64,000 bases of DNA from Naegleria gruberi (Eukaryota): the NCBI GenBank assembly GCA_000004985.1, contig GG738875.1, one strand, 5' to 3'. The position numbers and the translations under genes were made by a program. This document shows positions 25,257 through 33,595 of this stretch, piece by piece (the first letter of the stretch is position 1; every line of letters starts with the position of its first letter). Under the pieces are notes generated by a model. It saw only the letters and a list, made by a program, of their open reading frames with translations. It did no database searches and had not been told where the DNA came from.

Positions 25257-26963
25257 ATGATATCAACAAAAAGTGAATCATCACACTTACAAGACATAAC
25301 AATTGAACAACCATTGAAAAACAAGACAAACCTTCCTTGTTACATTATCAAGAATTTTCTCACACCGAAAGAATGTTCGGAATTTATTGAAAAAGCTGTG
25401 AAAATTGGATTTGATTTGGCCTCTCATGATTACCCACCTTCCTACAGAAATAATGAGAGAATTATAATGGATGACGAAGAGTTGGCAGAGAAAATGACCA
25501 AGAAATTGAAACCAATGCTTGATAGTTTGAATTTAGTGGAATTTGAAAAGGATGGATTGGAATGTGAATTGAAAAGTGTCAATTCTAGATTTAGATTGTG
25601 TAGATATCAAGAAGGACAAGAATTTAGAATTCATCAAGATGGTGTTCATTACAAATCAAAGTTTGTCAAGTCAATTTTGACATTTATGATTTATTTGAAT
25701 GAAGAATTTGATAATGGACATACAATTTTCTTCAAGTCTGGACCTTCCTCAAACCCTCCAGAAGAAATGGGAAAATACAAACCTCAATGTGGTGATTTGA
25801 TAGTATTTGATCATGAATTGTGGCATTCTGGAGAAATTGTCAATAATGGTATCAAATATGTCATGAGGAGTGATATCATTTATGATACTATCCCTATTAG
25901 TTTTGGAAATAATTCAATCGGAACAATGGAATCATTGGAAAATTCGAACAATTGGAATAATTCTCACAATGGATATGTTTGGAAATTAATCAAGGTTGGA
26001 AAAGATGATTCCTTAATTGCTAGCGGAGGAAGAGACACCACTATAAATATTTTCAACGAATCACTGCAAATCCAATTCAAACTTGAGGGTCACCAAAAAT
26101 CAGTGCTTGGCTTATCGAAAATGGCAAATAATCAAATGGTTTCCATTTCCAGAGACCGATCAATTAAGATTTGGGACCTGGAAACGAGAGAATGTATTTT
26201 CACCAAAGAGCAAGCTCACAATCATACAGGATTATGTGTAGAAGCGGATCCTTTTGATTCTTCAATAATTGCTTCTGGCTCTGCTGATTGTATCATCAAA
26301 CTTTGGAAATTTGTTGATGGAAAATTAGAATTGTCCAAACAATTTAACGGCCACAATGGATGGATTTGGTCTTTGAAATGGATTACAATTGAAGGAGAGA
26401 GGATGCTCTTGTCTGCATCTGAGGATGGATCCATACGAGTCTGGAATAGTGAAACTGGCTCGTGTCACATTATTGATCAATTACAAAATCCTCTTAGGTG
26501 CCTTACTACTTTTAATTATCCAAATTCACAAATGGACACCATTATTTGTCTTGGAGACAATGAAGGCAATCTCTATCTCTATTATGTAAAAGGGGGTTTT
26601 AGTAATTTTAGTACGAAACGAACAGAATTCAAGAACTTGCACAGGGCCTCAATAAGAACTGTTAAATTTATTAGTTCTCACATGATTGTAACAGGCTCTG
26701 AAGACTATTCTGTAATGTTATGGAAACTGAAGCATGAGCTTTCCTCAATACCTCAACTACATCATGTCTATACCTTCAATCACAATAATTTTGTCACAGA
26801 CTGTCTCTCACAATTTCACAATGAACAACAAGCACAAGAGGAGGATAATCAATTCGCCTCCTTCTTCACTTCCTCCTATGATGGCGCCATTAAGAAACAC
26901 CAAGTATCACTCTCATCGACAAGTCTTTCTTTAACTTTGCTTGGCATGATTGGTACCAATTAA
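25257..26963 (+). CDS. Prolyl-4-hydroxylase-like 2OG-Fe(II) oxygenase domain fused to C-terminal WD40 repeats (568 aa)
   Basis: N-terminal half has the P4Hc-type iron-binding triad: HxD (RIHQDG), distal His (ELWHSGEIV) and the 2OG Arg (KYVMRSD). C-terminal half has four or more WD repeats (SISRDRSIKIWDL, SGSADCIIKLWKF, SASEDGSIRVWN, TGSEDYSVMLWKL). Confidence 0.55.
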   Translation: MISTKSESSHLQDITIEQPLKNKTNLPCYIIKNFLTPKECSEFIEKAVKIGFDLASHDYPPSYRNNERIIMDDEELAEKMTKKLKPMLDSLNLVEFEKDGLECELKSVNSRFRLCRYQEGQEFRIHQDGVHYKSKFVKSILTFMIYLNEEFDNGHTIFFKSGPSSNPPEEMGKYKPQCGDLIVFDHELWHSGEIVNNGIKYVMRSDIIYDTIPISFGNNSIGTMESLENSNNWNNSHNGYVWKLIKVGKDDSLIASGGRDTTINIFNESLQIQFKLEGHQKSVLGLSKMANNQMVSISRDRSIKIWDLETRECIFTKEQAHNHTGLCVEADPFDSSIIASGSADCIIKLWKFVDGKLELSKQFNGHNGWIWSLKWITIEGERMLLSASEDGSIRVWNSETGSCHIIDQLQNPLRCLTTFNYPNSQMDTIICLGDNEGNLYLYYVKGGFSNFSTKRTEFKNLHRASIRTVKFISSHMIVTGSEDYSVMLWKLKHELSSIPQLHHVYTFNHNNFVTDCLSQFHNEQQAQEEDNQFASFFTSSYDGAIKKHQVSLSSTSLSLTLLGMIGTN

Positions 26964-27126: not shown

Positions 27127-29701
27127 ATGCCTTGCGGAAAGGAAGTAAATCATGTTCGGATAGAGCCCTCTAATATTATTGTTTGTAATCATCAGATGAT
27201 GAAGGAGAATGGACCATTACCATCAACATCAACATCATCATGTAAATTAAGGCACCATAAGGATGTACTACTGCTGCATCCAAAGAGGAACAAAACAAGA
27301 AAAGTTTCCAAGTGTAAAGTAGAAACAACACGTAGTGTTGATTGTGATGATTCTTCGTCTTCAGCATCACACTCGGTACCATCAATATTAAATGTGGTAC
27401 TAAGGTTCAAAAGCCTATTCTTCCTCATATGCTTCTTCTTCTTCTTCTCACATGATACATGCCTTGTTGGAAAGGTAGAGGCGATAACATGCCCAAACGG
27501 AGTGGATAATCTTCACATACAAACAAATTGGGTGATGCAAGCACAATATGGTGCCTTTCAAGCAGCAGTGGAGATGGGATTTTATGATAATGAATGTTTG
27601 AATGTTGTTATCAAATTGGGTATGTTGTACAAGAAATGTTGAACATTGTTGACATGATCTTACATCTATAACAATGTTAAATATTTTATGATAATGTTAT
27701 CATTGTATTATGTACAACGATGATGTGGATCAACATGCCTCAAATTATATGATAAAAAAGGTGGACCTAATGCTGATCCAATAGCAGTAATTAAAAGTGG
27801 TGAAGCTCAATTGGGAGTTTTCTTATATTCGAGAGTTTTGGTCAATAGAGAGCTTGGCTTGGACTTTGTAAATATTTTCCAACATTATTCGAGAGGTGGA
27901 TTGACAATGGTTTCGAGGACAGAATCTGAGATATCAACCTTCCCACAATTCAAAGGGAAGAATATTGGATATTGGGTTGGTAATGATTACTCCCTGCTTG
28001 CCACAATGAAGAAATATAATATAGATACCAAAACGGAAATGAGCTTGAGATTGCAATCTTTCTCAATTTTACCATTGTTGGAACAACCTGAAAGGTAGGT
28101 TAATATTTTCTTGACTTTTTACCTTTAATTTTTTTCTAAACATTTTACTATTAAGATATGATGTTATTATGGCAATGGGATATGATCAATTGGGAAATCT
28201 TTTGATGACTGCAAAGAAAGATTCAAGTGGAAAACCGACTGATGAATTGTATTCGATTGGAAGAGATTTAAATATCTTGGATTTCAATGCAGAACAAACT
28301 GCCATGTTGGAAGATTGTATTGTTATGAACAAGGCTTGGTATGACACCAATCCAATCAAAAATAAGGACATTCTAGTTCGTTTCTTGAAAGCAACTATTA
28401 AGGGATTGATTACCTGTAGAGATTATGAAACCAAATGTTTCAATTTAATGCCAGATAAGAGTGCACATCAAGTTTGGTCAGTGAGAGAAGTCAACAAATT
28501 AATTTGGCCTGCTAATTTAAATGGAGTAGGATGGATGAATACTACCTTATTGAACAGAACTATAGACGTTGCTTACAAATTTGGAGTAATTAATTCATTA
28601 GCTTCAGCTAATGGATCTTATGATTCTCAATTTGTTGAAGAAGCCATGCGACAATTTAGAAAAGGACTAGCGGATGGAAGTATTTCAGATAAGTATTCTG
28701 ATTTAGTAGCACCAAACTATGGTCCAACCTCACACGAATTCTGCTATGACGTTACAACTGATACTGTTTTCATTTGTAATGGAAAACTTGATACCCTTCG
28801 TGTAACTGTACTTGTTGTAGGAATAGTATTGGGAAGTGTGATGGTAATGTCTGCCGTTTTGGGACTGTTGGCCATTGCGTTTGGCTTTACTCTCTTGAAG
28901 AAACGAAGAGAATTGCTAATGTTTGCCCCTACAGAAAAGGATGAATCATTCCCAATTGTTTTCACTGATATTCAACAATCAACAAAATTATGGAATGCCT
29001 TCCCAGAGGAAATGAAAATTGCTCTGGAACTTCACAATCAATTGCTGCGGAGATTATTAGATGAATATGAAGGATATGAATGTAAATCACAAGGAGATGG
29101 ATTGATGGTCGCTTTCAGAGATCCAATCAATGCATTGAAATGGATGTTGAGAAGTCAAGTGGAATTAATGAAATTGGATTGGCCAGAACATTTAATGGAT
29201 CAAGAACATGCAAAATTTGAGGTTGATAATGTTGGTAAAATGATATTCAGAGGATTGAGAGTGAGAATGGGAGGTGGAATGTGTAAACCAGATGTAAAAA
29301 GGGACAAAATTGGACGGATTGATTATCTAGGTAATGATGTGAATCAAGCTGCAAGAGTTGGAAGCATTGCAGTGGGTGGCCAAATTGTCATTCATCAAAA
29401 TTTGTATGAGGAAGTTTCACACAAACTTACGGACCTCATCATTAGAGGAGAAACAAAAGCTCCACCGTTCAATTTTCTAGGTTTCTACATGCTTAAAGGA
29501 ATTGACGGAGTTCATGCTCTGTATGACATATTGCCAGCAAGTATTCACTTTAGAAAATCTCTCTTTCCACCAATTTTCGATGAAGCAAAAGGACTTCTAA
29601 TTAAGGAACTTGAAGAAACAGCAATCATTGCCACAACCACAGATATAATGGACGAACCAGAAGCTCAAGGTTCAGGAGAGAAATCTAGCAATGAAATTTA
29701 A
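27127..29701 (+). CDS. Receptor-type class III nucleotidyl (adenylyl/guanylyl) cyclase, copy 1: extracellular NMT1/THI5/SsuA-like solute-binding domain, single TM, cyclase domain; 3 exons join(<27127..27619,27761..28094,28156..29701), 5' end uncertain
   Basis: Introns of 141 nt (GTATGT..AG) and 61 nt (GTAGGT..AG) lie at the same positions as in copy 2. The extracellular domain has a periplasmic solute-binding profile (AITCPNG...WVMQAQYGAFQAAVEMGFYD...KGKNIGYWVGNDYSLLA...YDVIMAMGYD). TM helix LVVGIVLGSVMVMSAVLGLLAIAFGF. Cyclase motifs IVFTDIQQSTKLW, KSQGDGLMVAF and YLGNDVNQAARV. No in-frame ATG sits immediately before the signal-like segment. Confidence 0.6.
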
Positions 29702-30156
29702 GGAATTCAAGCCCCTCCTGTGATGGACAGTAGACTAAACAATGAGATCCTCAATCTCCAAAATCGTTAAAGTCCAACCTTTTAAGAACCTCAACATTAT
29801 TTCTTAAGGACACTTTGGCGCTTAATATTCGCAACCCTTTATGGCAGTTTGGTCTGATGTGTACTGCAAAAACGACCAAATAAAGATCTGTAAAGCCTAA
29901 TTTCGTGCCCTTAGTAATCATCCCGTTTGACCTCACAAGAAATCATCTCTTTGCTATACTGATTCAACCCTCCTCCGCTAATTAATAACTTCTATTCAAG
30001 AAGAAAAAACCATCACATCAACAACTTTATTGTAGTTTTTAGAGAGAGATTAAGGATTGATTGGTATAGACTAAAATGATGATGGCAATATTCAATTCAA
30101 AAAGAAAGAATACATATCTGCTGCATCAAATAGGGCTTGTTGATGATATAAAGAAA

Positions 30157-32374
30157 ATGAAATTATATTCTTTTCATCAAGGAAAGACCTTATTTACAAC
30201 CTTCTTATTTATTGTACTACTTTTAATTGTGATGATGATCAATTGGGTAGAGGCCATTACTTGTCCTAATGGTGTTGATAATATAAATATACAAACAAAT
30301 TGGGTGATGCAGGCACAGTATGGTGCCTTTCAAGCAGCTGTTGAGATGGGATTTTATGATAATGAATGTTTGAATGTTGTTATCAAATTGGGTATGTTGT
30401 CATGTGTATTGTACTATTAACCTTGTTGTTACTGATCTGGTGTTGGTATCTTCTCTTATAAAATAGGTGGACCTAATGCTGATCCAATAGCAGTAATTAA
30501 AAGTGGTGAAGCTCAATTGGGAGTTTTCCTATATTCGAGAGTTTTGGTCAATAGAGAGCTGGGCTTAGATTTTGTAAATATTTTCCAACATTATTCGAGA
30601 GGTGGATTGACAATGGTTTCGAGGACAGAATCAGGGATTTCCTCTTTTCCACAGTTTAAGGGGAAGAATATTGGTTATTGGGTTGGTAATGATTACTCCT
30701 TATTAGCAACCATTAAGAAACATGGAATGGATCCAAAAACAGAAATGAGCTTGAGATTGCAATCTTTCTCAATTTTACCATTGTTGGAACAACCTGAAAG
30801 GTAGGTGTCTTTTAACTTGGATTTGTTGTTTTATTAATGCTAAACTATTAAGATATGATGTTATTATGGCAATGGGATATGATCAATTGGGAAATCTTTT
30901 GATGACTGCAAAGAAAGATTCAAATGGAAAATCAACTGAAGAATTGTATTCGATTGGAAGAGATTTAAATATCTTGGATTTCAATGCAGAACAGACTGCC
31001 ATGTTGGAAGATTGTATTGTGATGAACAAGGCATGGTATGACACTAATCCAATCAAAAATAAGGACATTCTAGTTCGTTTCTTGAAAGCCACTATTAAGG
31101 GATTGATTACATGTAGAGATTATGAAACAAAATGTTTCAATTTAATGCCAGATAAGAGTGCACATCAAGTTTGGTCAGTGAGAGAAGTCAACAAATTAAT
31201 TTGGCCTGCCAATTTAAATGGAATTGGTTCATTGAATGTTTCTCGTATCAATCAAACAATTGATATTGCTTACAAATTTGGAGTTATTAAATCGTTAGCT
31301 CCAGCCAATGGATCCTACGATTCTCAATTTGTGGACGAAGCTCTTAAGCACTTCAAAACAGGACTAGCCGATGGAACAGTCTTGAATACCTATTCTGATT
31401 TAGTAGCACCAAATTATGGTCCAACCTCACACGAATTTTGCTATGATCTAACAACTGAAACAGTTTTTATTTGTAATGGAAAAGTTAACTATTCAAATGT
31501 TATCATCGCTGTCATTGTTTCAGTTTTAGGATGTGCCCTACTGGTTGCTGCAATTATTGGTGCCTGTGCATTCATTGTTTGGAGAAGGCACGTGGCAAGA
31601 AGGAACAGAATTCTCGTCTATGCACCAACAGAAAAGGATGAATCATTCCCAATTGTTTTCACTGATATTCAACAATCAACAAAATTATGGAATGCAGCTC
31701 CTGATGATATGAAAATTGCTCTCGAGCTTCACAATCAACTACTAAGAAAATTGCTTGCAGAGTACGAGGGATATGAATGTAAATCACAAGGAGATGGATT
31801 GATGGTCGCATTCAGAGATCCAATCAATGCTTTGAAATGGATGTTGAGAAGTCAGGTGGAATTGATGAAATTAGATTGGCCAGAACATTTAATGGATCAA
31901 GAACATGCAAAATTCGAAGTTGACAATGTTGGTAAAATGATATTCAGAGGATTGAGAGTGAGAATGGGAGGTGGAATGTGTAAACCAGATGTCAAAAAAG
32001 ATTCCATGGATAAAGTTGACTATTTCGGCAATGATGTGAATCAAGCTGCAAGAGTTGGAAGTATTGCAGTGGGTGGCCAAATTGTCATTCACGAGAATTT
32101 ATATCACGAAATCATGACAAGACTTTCTGAGCTAATATTCAGAGGTGAAACCAAGTCACCTGTCGTTAACTTCCTTGGGCCATACTGTCTTAAAGGAATT
32201 GAAGGTGTGCATGTCTTGTATGATATTCTACCAGCTAGCATTCAAAACAGAAAGACATTATTCCCAACTGAATGTGATGAAGCTAAGGGAACATTGTGGA
32301 AACCAAGTGACTCGGATGGAAATACTCCACAACAATTAGTCGATCAATTAGAAAGCAAACGATTTGAAAAATAA
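30157..32374 (+). CDS. Receptor-type class III nucleotidyl cyclase, copy 2 (tandem paralog of copy 1); join(30157..30391,30467..30800,30853..32374)
   Basis: Same three-exon structure, with introns of 75 and 52 nt. Signal peptide MKLYSFHQGKTLFTTFLFIVLLLIV, solute-binding domain, TM helix VIIAVIVSVLGCALLVAAIIGACAFIV, then the cyclase domain. Both copies are intact. Confidence 0.65.
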
Positions 32375-32485: not shown

Positions 32486-33595
32486 TTGCTTTCAAAAAAA
32501 CAAAAAAAAATGTCCCAATTATCGATTAGAACTACATCCTATCATTTGCCAAATCTAAATGATGATGAGCAATCATTTAAATTACAATTATTTTCAAGTG
32601 CAGAACAATTCTGGGATTACACCTCTTCCTATCTGATGGAATTTCCAGCAGAGAATAATCTCGTGTTGGGAATTATAAAATCTTGCATTGAAACTCCGAA
32701 TCGATTTTCTTCCGATAAGAGGTTCTTGATGAGTATTGAAGATTTGGAGGGAAATATTCAGATGGTAATTGTGTGGACTATTCCATTCTTGATTCTGACA
32801 AGTTATTCGAAAGAGATGGAGAAGAGAAGGGTAATATTGAAGAGTTTGATTGGATTCTTTTTGAGAAATGATTACGAAACTTTGAGAATTGAAGGAGAAT
32901 TTAAAGCAGTAGAAGAAATGATTTCGACTTATGGAAGGAAATGTAATGGAATTTTATCAGATGATGAAGAATCTGAATGGTTTATTCAAGAATATTGTAA
33001 AGAAAGAGAACTGCTTTATCCTAATCAAAAATTGAATGTTATTCGAAATATTGGAATGACAACCTATCGATTGAGTTTGCAAGATTTAACACCTCTTAAA
33101 AGAGATTATCAAGATTTAGAATTTCACATTCTAGATTTACACGAAACTAATCGTGTAGAGGAATATCTTGATAGATTACAGGAATTTTACAAAACTGTCT
33201 TTCCAGAAAAGGAACAAAACAGTAGAGAATATATCATGGAGTTTATTCTTAGTAGAACTGCTTCCCGCCAAAATGCTTACTATTGCATTCGAAAGGAAAA
33301 TCCATCCAAAATGATTGCCATCAGTATGGCCAATCCACTTCCTCAATCAGCCAGAGTTTCATGTGTAATGAGTATTCCAGACGAAAGAGGAAAGGGAATT
33401 GGAAGTTACATTGTGCATCAAATGGCCAAAGATTTACTTGTTGAAAAACCCAAATTGACTGGAGAGCCATGTCAATGTTTGTTCTTGTTTGCTGACTTGT
33501 CCAATCCATCGGCAATTCATTTGTATGAAGGAGCAGGATTTAAGGGTGTTAGAAATGTGTGCGAATTGGAAATTAAATATCAGGATGAGGAATAA
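32486..33595 (+). CDS. Protein with C-terminal GNAT-type N-acetyltransferase fold (369 aa)
   Basis: The C-terminal ~120 aa carry acetyl-CoA-binding-like signature (RGKGIGSYIVHQMAKDLL ... LFLFADLSNPSAIHLYEGAGFKGV). The N-terminal region is unassigned. Confidence 0.45.
   Translation: MLSKKQKKMSQLSIRTTSYHLPNLNDDEQSFKLQLFSSAEQFWDYTSSYLMEFPAENNLVLGIIKSCIETPNRFSSDKRFLMSIEDLEGNIQMVIVWTIPFLILTSYSKEMEKRRVILKSLIGFFLRNDYETLRIEGEFKAVEEMISTYGRKCNGILSDDEESEWFIQEYCKERELLYPNQKLNVIRNIGMTTYRLSLQDLTPLKRDYQDLEFHILDLHETNRVEEYLDRLQEFYKTVFPEKEQNSREYIMEFILSRTASRQNAYYCIRKENPSKMIAISMANPLPQSARVSCVMSIPDERGKGIGSYIVHQMAKDLLVEKPKLTGEPCQCLFLFADLSNPSAIHLYEGAGFKGVRNVCELEIKYQDEE

Follow-up and report, generated by a model that had tools for sequence, protein, structure and literature searches.

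Gene models at the locus

We examined a stretch of 64,000 nucleotides from Naegleria gruberi (contig GG738875.1 of GenBank assembly GCA_000004985.1), referred to here as the window, which carries two related genes in a head-to-tail tandem arrangement on the plus strand: copy 1 at positions 27127-29701 and copy 2 at 30076-32374, separated by a spacer of 374 nucleotides (nt). Each copy is predicted, from its sequence and from a structural model, to encode an N-terminal signal, an ectodomain of the class II periplasmic-binding-protein (PBP) fold and of the NMT1/THI5 type, a cysteine hairpin, one transmembrane (TM) helix and a class III nucleotidyl cyclase domain. A Pfam search identifies exactly two families in each protein. 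The first is NMT1 (PF09084), with E-values of 1e-17 and 5e-20 for copies 1 and 2 (65 and 73 bits against a gathering cut-off of 20.5), and the second is Guanylate_cyc (PF00211), with E-values of 1e-16 and 4e-18 (61.2 and 66.0 bits against a cut-off of 21.9). A preliminary description of this DNA, made from its letters alone, had proposed the same order of domains and a profile check of the ectodomain and the C-terminus; both families score above gathering in both copies, and sequence analysis and structure prediction support the order.

The coding sequences were reconstructed from open reading frames (ORFs) and from splice models in which GT-AG introns were tried near each exon junction. Among the sites tried, a single GT-AG combination per copy gave an open frame, and the spliced products are 790 amino acids (aa) long for copy 1 and 723 aa for copy 2. 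Exon 3 by itself forms one unbroken ORF, of 510 (copy 1) or 502 (copy 2) residues, that takes in the ectodomain's C-terminal half, the TM helix and the whole cyclase; because this ORF spans both domains, the fusion of ectodomain to cyclase is independent of the splice model. The features of the two genes are as follows.

27127-27619, plus strand: copy 1 exon 1, 493 nt, ending in phase 1, from ORF and splice reconstruction; start codon uncertain
27409-27483, plus strand: copy 1 hydrophobic signal or signal-anchor segment, hydropathy peak at aa 87-105, ending in VEA
27484, plus strand: start of the copy 1 mature ectodomain (ITCPNG)
27620-27760, plus strand: copy 1 intron 1, 141 nt, GT..AG, phase 1
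27761-28094, plus strand: copy 1 exon 2, 334 nt, N-lobe of the NMT1-type ectodomain
28095-28155, plus strand: copy 1 intron 2, 61 nt, GT..AG, phase 2
28156-29701, plus strand: copy 1 exon 3 including the stop codon, one continuous ORF, with the remainder of the ectodomain to 28735, the Cys hairpin (EFC-x10-C) at 28736-28786 and the TM helix at about 28802-28897
28937 to about 29533, plus strand: copy 1 cyclase domain with its catalytic residues (Pfam Guanylate_cyc at aa 537-708), followed by a C-terminal tail
30076-30391, plus strand: copy 2 exon 1, 316 nt, ending in phase 1
30157-30255, plus strand: copy 2 predicted signal peptide, from the ATG at 30157 (MKLYSFHQGK, a hydrophobic core and VEA), with the mature ectodomain from 30256 (ITCPNG)
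30392-30466, plus strand: copy 2 intron 1, 75 nt, GT..AG, phase 1
30467-30800, plus strand: copy 2 exon 2, 334 nt, ectodomain N-lobe
30801-30852, plus strand: copy 2 intron 2, 52 nt, GT..AG, phase 2
30853-32374, plus strand: copy 2 exon 3 including the stop codon, one continuous ORF, with the remainder of the ectodomain to 31432, the Cys hairpin at 31433-31483 and the TM helix at about 31499-31582
31634 to about 32230, plus strand: copy 2 cyclase domain with its catalytic residues (Pfam Guanylate_cyc at aa 478-649), followed by a C-terminal tail

The intron positions and phases are shared, with exon 1 ending in phase 1 and exon 2 measuring 334 nt and ending in phase 2 in both genes. Together with 81% aa identity over 666 aa, this upholds the origin by tandem duplication that had been proposed for the pair. 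Copy 2 is 100% identical to a GenBank entry named 'predicted protein [Naegleria gruberi]' (P0001), and the public model of copy 1 (P0002) is 81% identical to copy 2, both entries lying on a 396-kb contig; these matches place the DNA in N. gruberi and replace the earlier impression of an amoebozoan-like genome. Naegleria gruberi belongs to the Heterolobosea within Discoba, the supergroup that also includes the trypanosomatids. Both public models start at an internal methionine (MGFYDNE... in P0001 and MQAQYGAF... in P0002), so that the signal segment and the ectodomain's first beta strand are missing; the ORFs in the window supply both.

The true start of copy 2 is likely to be the ATG at 30157, and cleavage after VEA was judged by eye from the small residues at positions -3 and -1. 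The N-terminus of copy 1 is either a cytosolic extension of about 95 aa with a signal anchor or the product of an unrecognised 5' exon; inspection by eye found no in-phase GT..AG pair for an extra 5' intron that would give this copy a nearby start codon. Under either model the predicted topology puts the ectodomain outside.

Fold, catalytic residues and divergence of the two copies

Hydropathy analysis finds two hydrophobic segments in each protein, one N-terminal and one internal, at the expected places. In the AlphaFold model of P0002, which is based on 41 aligned homologues, the ectodomain has a per-residue confidence (pLDDT) mostly above 90 and is followed by a beta-hairpin and then by a 34-residue helix that contains the TM segment. 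Only about 20 linker residues separate the TM helix from the first strand of the cyclase. We compared the ectodomain with structures in the PDB by Foldseek and by a profile search. The top Foldseek match is 4NMY (E-value 8e-16), followed by 3IX1 (TM-score 0.73 for both) and then by THI5, and the profile search returns the same order, with E-values of 5e-30, 3e-16 and 9e-12, respectively. The first of these structures is a thiamin-bound ABC substrate-binding protein (SBP) from C. difficile (PMC10586155). In the Foldseek search, structures of the TauA, SsuA and CmpA type rank lower, with E-values seven orders of magnitude behind those of 4NMY, ThiY and THI5, and the CmpBCD/CmpABCD regulatory-domain structures appear at ranks 26-28 with TM-scores of 0.52-0.54. 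3IX1 is ThiY, a binder of formylaminopyrimidine, and THI5 is hydroxymethylpyrimidine phosphate (HMP-P) synthase.

The closest solved cyclases by sequence are 1FX4 and 1FX2 (E-values of 2e-24 and 1e-22 in the PDB search), and Foldseek likewise places GRESAG4.3 and GRESAG4.1 (1FX4/1FX2) at the top for the cyclase part, at about 29% identity structurally. Both copies share with GRESAG4.1 the alignment blocks FTDI, K-S-Q-G-D, D-Y-x-G-N-D-V-N-Q-A-A-R and LKG. Within these blocks the metal-binding Asp pair (FTDI, QGDG), the Asn and Arg of VNQAAR and the C-terminal Lys of LKG are kept, and the Lys of CKSQGD and the Asp of (I/V)DY(L/F)G align with the corresponding K and D of GRESAG4.1 and Ma1120. The roles of these residues (metal binding by Asp, adenine specification by Lys/Asp, transition-state stabilisation by Asn/Arg) are presumed here to be those of their counterparts in the C1 and C2 domains of mammalian adenylate cyclase. 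All six canonical catalytic residues lie within one chain in both copies, which would give a head-to-tail homodimer two complete sites. The catalytic set is therefore intact, and the motifs quoted in the preliminary description are present as FTDIQQST and KSQGDG, plus YLGNDVNQAARV in copy 1 or YFGNDVNQAARV in copy 2.

Guanylate cyclases carry a specificity pair of the Glu/Cys/Ser type instead of Lys/Asp. Residue alignment, the suggested way to tell ATP from GTP cyclases, finds Lys/Asp in both copies, and since this is not the Glu plus Cys/Ser pair the predicted substrate is ATP. Additionally, an insertion after a conserved D-W motif occupies the position of the trypanosomal delta-subdomain and is shorter in Naegleria, and both copies have MGGGMC after LRVR in place of the common G-x-H-x-G.

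Divergence between the copies is distributed unevenly. The ectodomain as a whole is 88% identical at the aa level, with a synonymous divergence (dS) of 0.46 and a ratio of nonsynonymous to synonymous divergence (dN/dS) of 0.15; its core (aa 60-340 of copy 2) is 96% identical (dS 0.31, dN/dS 0.07), and the cyclase is 86% identical (dS 0.88, dN/dS 0.10). The TM/juxtamembrane region and the C-terminal tail retain only 29% and 37% aa identity, and the N-terminal regions are unrelated. The copies differ mainly in their membrane-proximal, TM, juxtamembrane and C-terminal parts, and the dN/dS values of the ectodomain point to strong purifying selection on it. These figures run opposite to the earlier claim that the ectodomain had diverged more than the cyclase domain. 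Nor is the divergence of ligand specificity drawn from that claim indicated: where at least 85% of 44 bacterial homologues (described below) agree, the copies differ at only three positions, all of them in one divergent patch. Because the family-conserved positions otherwise match, both copies probably bind the same ligand and differ in its transmission or in regulation.

At the DNA level, exon 2 is 91% identical between the copies and intron 1 only 42%. The ectodomain exons (27470-28575 against 30242-31272) are 87-93% identical, with dS of 0-0.3 in the core-encoding exons; the introns between them, at 42-62%, and the flanks, at about 45%, are saturated, and one exon patch, at aa 160-199 of copy 2, has a dS of about 1.8. 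This mosaic of conserved exons and saturated introns suggests either gene conversion limited to exons or constraint at the nucleotide level.

Relatives of the ectodomain and the candidate ligand

In the search for proteins with the same ectodomain, a profile built from P0001, P0002 and the green algal protein P0003 was run against 1.84 billion representatives, and the matches were scanned with Pfam. The eukaryotic members carry the following outputs.

P0054, environmental, 42% identical over its full length: cyclase after the TM helix
P0070, from the diplonemid Lacrimia lanifica: cyclase after the TM helix
P0003/P0200, from the green alga Tetraselmis striata: complementary C1/C2-like cyclase pair
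P0099, from a Logan contig: degenerate cyclase
P0181, from Tetraselmis astigmatica: PDEase_I phosphodiesterase
P0193, from the stramenopile Platysulcus tardus: 7tm_3 class C receptor
P0093: 7tm_3 class C receptor

In the T. striata pair the metal-binding Asp residues occur solely in the first cyclase domain and the Asn and Arg solely in the second, as in mammalian C1/C2. P0099 is a pseudo-cyclase that has kept the ectodomain and lost the catalytic residues, and P0181 is a receptor-type phosphodiesterase in which the NMT1-type ectodomain and Cys hairpin are joined to PDEase_I. In P0193 and P0093 an NMT1-type flytrap sits on a 7tm_3 domain, which is unusual, the known class C receptor flytraps being type I PBPs. 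In the recorded sequence of a further member, P0104, little follows the TM helix.

An FC-x(8-11)-C motif lies 5-25 residues before the TM segment in all ten of the ten eukaryotic members, and the bacterial proteins inspected end before the hairpin position and lack the Cys pair. A phylogeny had been suggested as a way to examine a horizontal-transfer origin of the ectodomain. Our neighbour-joining tree weakly supports a eukaryotic grouping, with most eukaryotic ectodomains together at 42% bootstrap and those of Platysulcus and Tetraselmis elsewhere on long branches, and it does not settle the origin; the Cys hairpin is a better argument than the tree for a common origin of the eukaryotic ectodomains. 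The occurrence of the same ectodomain and hairpin across different outputs points to a reusable sensor module.

A profile restricted to the eukaryotic sequences brought no new eukaryotic members among more than 1300 bacterial SBPs. The top matches with several aligned stretches (P0050-P0053 and P0063) are multi-cyclase proteins that carry no NMT1 domain, and they were set aside as irrelevant. A search of 90% clusters, for which coverage of other Naegleria genomes is unconfirmed, returned no close orthologue from another species of the genus.

Bacterial homologues of the ectodomain number more than 1300 at E<1e-10, including proteins from Gaiellaceae and Actinoplanes, and are 31-39% identical over about 88% of its length; the sources label them 'NitT/TauT family'. 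Two Cys pairs, the N-terminal C...DxC and CRDxxxxC, are common to the bacterial SBPs and to Naegleria, as are most of the conserved polar residues. Of the positions on which at least 85% of 44 bacterial SBPs agree, Naegleria keeps 18 polar or aromatic ones: W76, Q79, Q81, Q146, W177, N180, D194, Q204, D219, Y226, D270, R305, H321, Q322, W324, E328, K331 and W334.

In order to find clues to the ligand, we read 11 bacterial genomic contexts of these homologues, nine of which are operons of the order permease-ATPase-permease-SBP. Enzymes that degrade N-heterocycles are encoded in seven of the nine distinct ABC-operon contexts, as follows.

L015 (3347-7149) and L016 (3313-7164): flavin, Fe-S and Mo subunits of a Mo-hydroxylase of the xanthine-dehydrogenase family; L015 also AllH
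L010: flavin subunit only, with CoxG/CoxE/XdhC maturation genes; also a cyclic amidohydrolase
L007, L010, L013/14 and L017: dihydropyrimidinase/hydantoinase-like amidohydrolase
L007 (1360-8125) and L013/14 (L013 1-8581): also CN_hydrolase and LLM monooxygenase; in one, an aminotransferase and a short-chain dehydrogenase/reductase

The set of CN_hydrolase, amidohydrolase and LLM monooxygenase resembles pyrimidine catabolism. The conserved bacterial operon is probably an uncharacterised cluster for the uptake and catabolism of N-heterocycles. An Rfam search of four bacterial loci for a riboswitch as a ligand clue returned none. Yu and Breaker have noted that many 'NMT1/THI5-like' genes are part of purine oxidation and not of thiamin metabolism (PMC7373994).

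The likeliest ligand of the Naegleria ectodomain is an organic N-heterocycle of the nucleobase, pyrimidine or thiamin-pyrimidine type, which might for instance be a cue from bacterial prey or decaying matter; this is the weakest step of our argument. Such a compound is favoured over nitrate or bicarbonate because of the bacterial operon contexts and the affinity of the fold to ThiY and 4NMY, and an inorganic anion is the less likely ligand.

Two further genes flank the pair. Upstream, at 25257-26963 on the plus strand, a single 568-aa ORF encodes a 2OG-Fe(II) oxygenase domain of the prolyl-hydroxylase-like kind fused to a WD40 propeller. Downstream, at 32486-33595 on the plus strand, an intron-less ORF has a C-terminal GNAT acetyltransferase domain and no relation to cyclases. 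No permease or ATPase genes that would speak for an ABC-importer role are found among these flanking genes, and the Naegleria domain does not function as an SBP of ABC transport. The content of G and C is 0.35-0.37 at the locus, and it ranges from 0.29 to 0.37 over the AT-rich window; we reject contamination or a bacterial origin of the locus in view of the spliceosomal introns, this match in composition and the eukaryotic neighbours.

Interpretation and comparison with known systems

The domain architecture, the predicted fold, the catalytic residues, the conservation of the ectodomain and the bacterial operon contexts lead us to favour, with moderate confidence, the view that the pair encodes tandemly duplicated type I membrane receptors of the adenylate cyclase kind, in which small-molecule sensing by a flytrap would control cAMP synthesis. 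Class III cyclases need to dimerise, and the activity of GRESAG4.4B rises more than 20-fold under forced proximity (PMC6027212). In the proposed mechanism the active form would be a head-to-tail homodimer, or a heterodimer of copy 1 and copy 2, that produces cAMP. A small molecule would close the extracellular flytrap, closure would alter the geometry of the ectodomain dimer, and this change would travel via the hairpin, the TM helix and the short linker to both catalytic domains, where cAMP synthesis would be switched.

Several observations weigh against this proposal. Copy 1 has the same VEA/ITCPNG junction and hydrophobic segment as copy 2, yet no ATG lies close by. The cyclase part of the AlphaFold model of P0002 is weaker than the ectodomain, with pLDDT of 43-89 by block. 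Some family-conserved positions are changed in Naegleria (N227D, E228Q, E234M, W127L and W301L), which leaves room for a ligand other than that of the bacterial proteins. The bacterial contexts are themselves mixed: one operon contains LLM monooxygenase and TauD, one contains a dipeptidase, one is uninformative, and two of the homologue genes are orphans. Finally, the ligands of the trypanosomal receptors are still unknown after decades, so a ligand-independent mode is possible (PMC6027212).

One alternative takes the last point further: the ectodomain could be a structural or dimerisation scaffold, and the cyclase could respond to signals from the cytosol or to stress of the membrane, osmotic or pH kind, a view that has been put forward for trypanosomal receptor cyclases. 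Trypanosomal receptor cyclases, whose ligands are unknown, respond to acid, hypotonic or proteolytic stress (PMC6027212), and the retention of the ectodomain beside a degenerate cyclase in P0099, together with the recorded end of P0104 soon after its TM helix, would suit a scaffold. We consider this unlikely in view of the dN/dS of 0.07 in the ectodomain core, the retained polar residues of a bacterial transport-SBP family and the presence of the module on three different signalling outputs, the last being the pattern expected of a sensor.

A second alternative keeps the architecture and lets the ectodomain sense a small anion or a sulfonate, such as bicarbonate, nitrate, taurine or an alkanesulfonate, as the preliminary description had suggested. 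The NMT1 superfamily does take in SsuA, TauA, NrtA and CmpA, the bacterial homologues bear the 'NitT/TauT family' label, NCBIfam reports weak matches to a taurine SBP (E-value 0.0016) and to the SsuA family (E-value 0.15), and one bacterial relative lies in the operon with LLM monooxygenase and TauD, a signature of sulfonate utilisation. However, the NCBIfam matches fall far under the curated cut-offs (18 against 304 bits), and PF09084 is the only ectodomain family that Pfam reports at E-values up to 1, with no match to an NrtA or CmpA family; the profile search against the PDB returns no structure of the TauA, SsuA, NrtA or CmpA type at E<0.01. The gap of seven E-value orders in Foldseek, the thiamin/pyrimidine type of the nearest structures and the predominance of N-heterocycle catabolism in the operons (seven of nine) argue in the same direction. 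Bicarbonate and nitrate are thus not favoured as ligands, a sulfonate is kept as a minor possibility in view of the TauD context and the weak TauA/SsuA matches, and we regard this alternative as a whole as quite improbable.

It is very improbable that one copy, or both, has lost its function as a decaying duplicate or that the enzyme is a guanylate cyclase: copy 1 does lack an ATG near its signal segment and has a 95-aa N-terminal region that is unmatched in copy 2, and MGGGMC does replace the common stretch after LRVR, but the frames are intact over 790 and 723 codons, dN/dS is 0.10-0.15 in both domains, the six catalytic residues are present and the Lys/Asp pair is that of GRESAG4.1 and Ma1120.

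Beyond the receptor cyclases of the Naegleria pair, we tentatively raise the possibility of an undescribed and widespread eukaryotic module, in which a type II flytrap with a Cys hairpin senses a metabolite of the nucleobase or pyrimidine kind and is linked to cAMP synthesis, cAMP hydrolysis or G-protein signalling. In Naegleria it might serve as a chemoreceptor for prey or decay, and it might be the first receptor adenylate cyclase for which homologues in bacterial transporters allow the ligand to be deduced. Public databases already contain both genes, as 5'-truncated 'predicted proteins', with their Pfam domains. Full-text searches of literature mostly outside subscription journals, and therefore weak as evidence of absence, turned up no account of a receptor cyclase, a phosphodiesterase or a class C receptor with an NMT1-type ectodomain. 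The presence of the module on cyclase, phosphodiesterase and class C seven-transmembrane outputs in distant eukaryotes suggests an overlooked family of metabolite sensors and offers an example of flytrap swapping, in which type II replaces type I. If control by a ligand is true, the module would be usable as a part for engineered cAMP signalling under small-molecule control.

Receptor-type adenylate cyclases have been regarded as a trypanosomatid hallmark, and what they bind has stayed unknown for decades (PMC6027212). The Naegleria pair would place the receptor logic of trypanosomatids in a free-living relative with a different ectodomain. Its bacterial homologues, at 31-39% identity, and their operon contexts narrow the candidate ligands, and for this reason the question of what activates kinetoplastid-type receptor cyclases becomes directly testable.

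The pair can be compared with several kinds of known system. Bacterial SBPs of the ThiY/thiamin-SBP branch (3IX1, 4NMY) and of an actinobacterial/soil clade (P0201, P0203, P0004) have the same fold as the Naegleria ectodomain. They are free lipoproteins or periplasmic proteins that pass the ligand to an ABC permease, whereas the Naegleria domain is joined via a hairpin and a TM helix to an enzyme and, unlike them, is encoded in spliced eukaryotic genes and carries the eukaryote-specific Cys hairpin. The atrial natriuretic peptide (ANP) receptor, which is a membrane guanylate cyclase, and the class C G-protein-coupled receptors (GPCRs) share the logic by which a dimer of flytrap ectodomains controls a cytosolic or seven-transmembrane output. 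Guanylate cyclase receptors of the ANP type and class C GPCRs use type I (LIVBP-like) flytraps, and the former add a kinase-homology domain and Glu/Cys specificity. The Lacrimia, P0054 and Tetraselmis members have the same ectodomain, FC-x(8-11)-C hairpin and single TM helix as Naegleria, and their outputs vary.

A close parallel is with the ESAG4/GRESAG4 receptor cyclases of trypanosomatids, which like Naegleria belong to Discoba. The preliminary description had drawn this analogy, and it holds in that their catalytic domain is the closest solved homologue (E-value 2e-24). In both groups an extracellular flytrap-type domain is followed by a single TM helix and a C-terminal cytosolic class III cyclase, and the GRESAG4 and Naegleria cyclases share the same Lys/Asp/Asn/Arg set and an insertion at the delta-subdomain place with a common D-W motif. 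Its best PDB matches, by sequence and by Foldseek, assign the Naegleria catalytic domain to the GRESAG4 lineage. The ectodomain is not homologous: euglenozoan receptor cyclases use a type I PBP (ANF_receptor/Peripla_BP_6), as does the Euglena comparator P0006 (PF01094/PF13458), and Naegleria uses a single type II NMT1/THI5 domain with a Cys hairpin. Trypanosomatid receptor cyclases have two Venus flytraps per chain (PMC6027212). Therefore, we conclude that the Naegleria pair is predicted to work like the trypanosomatid receptor-cyclase family and is not a member of it by its ectodomain.

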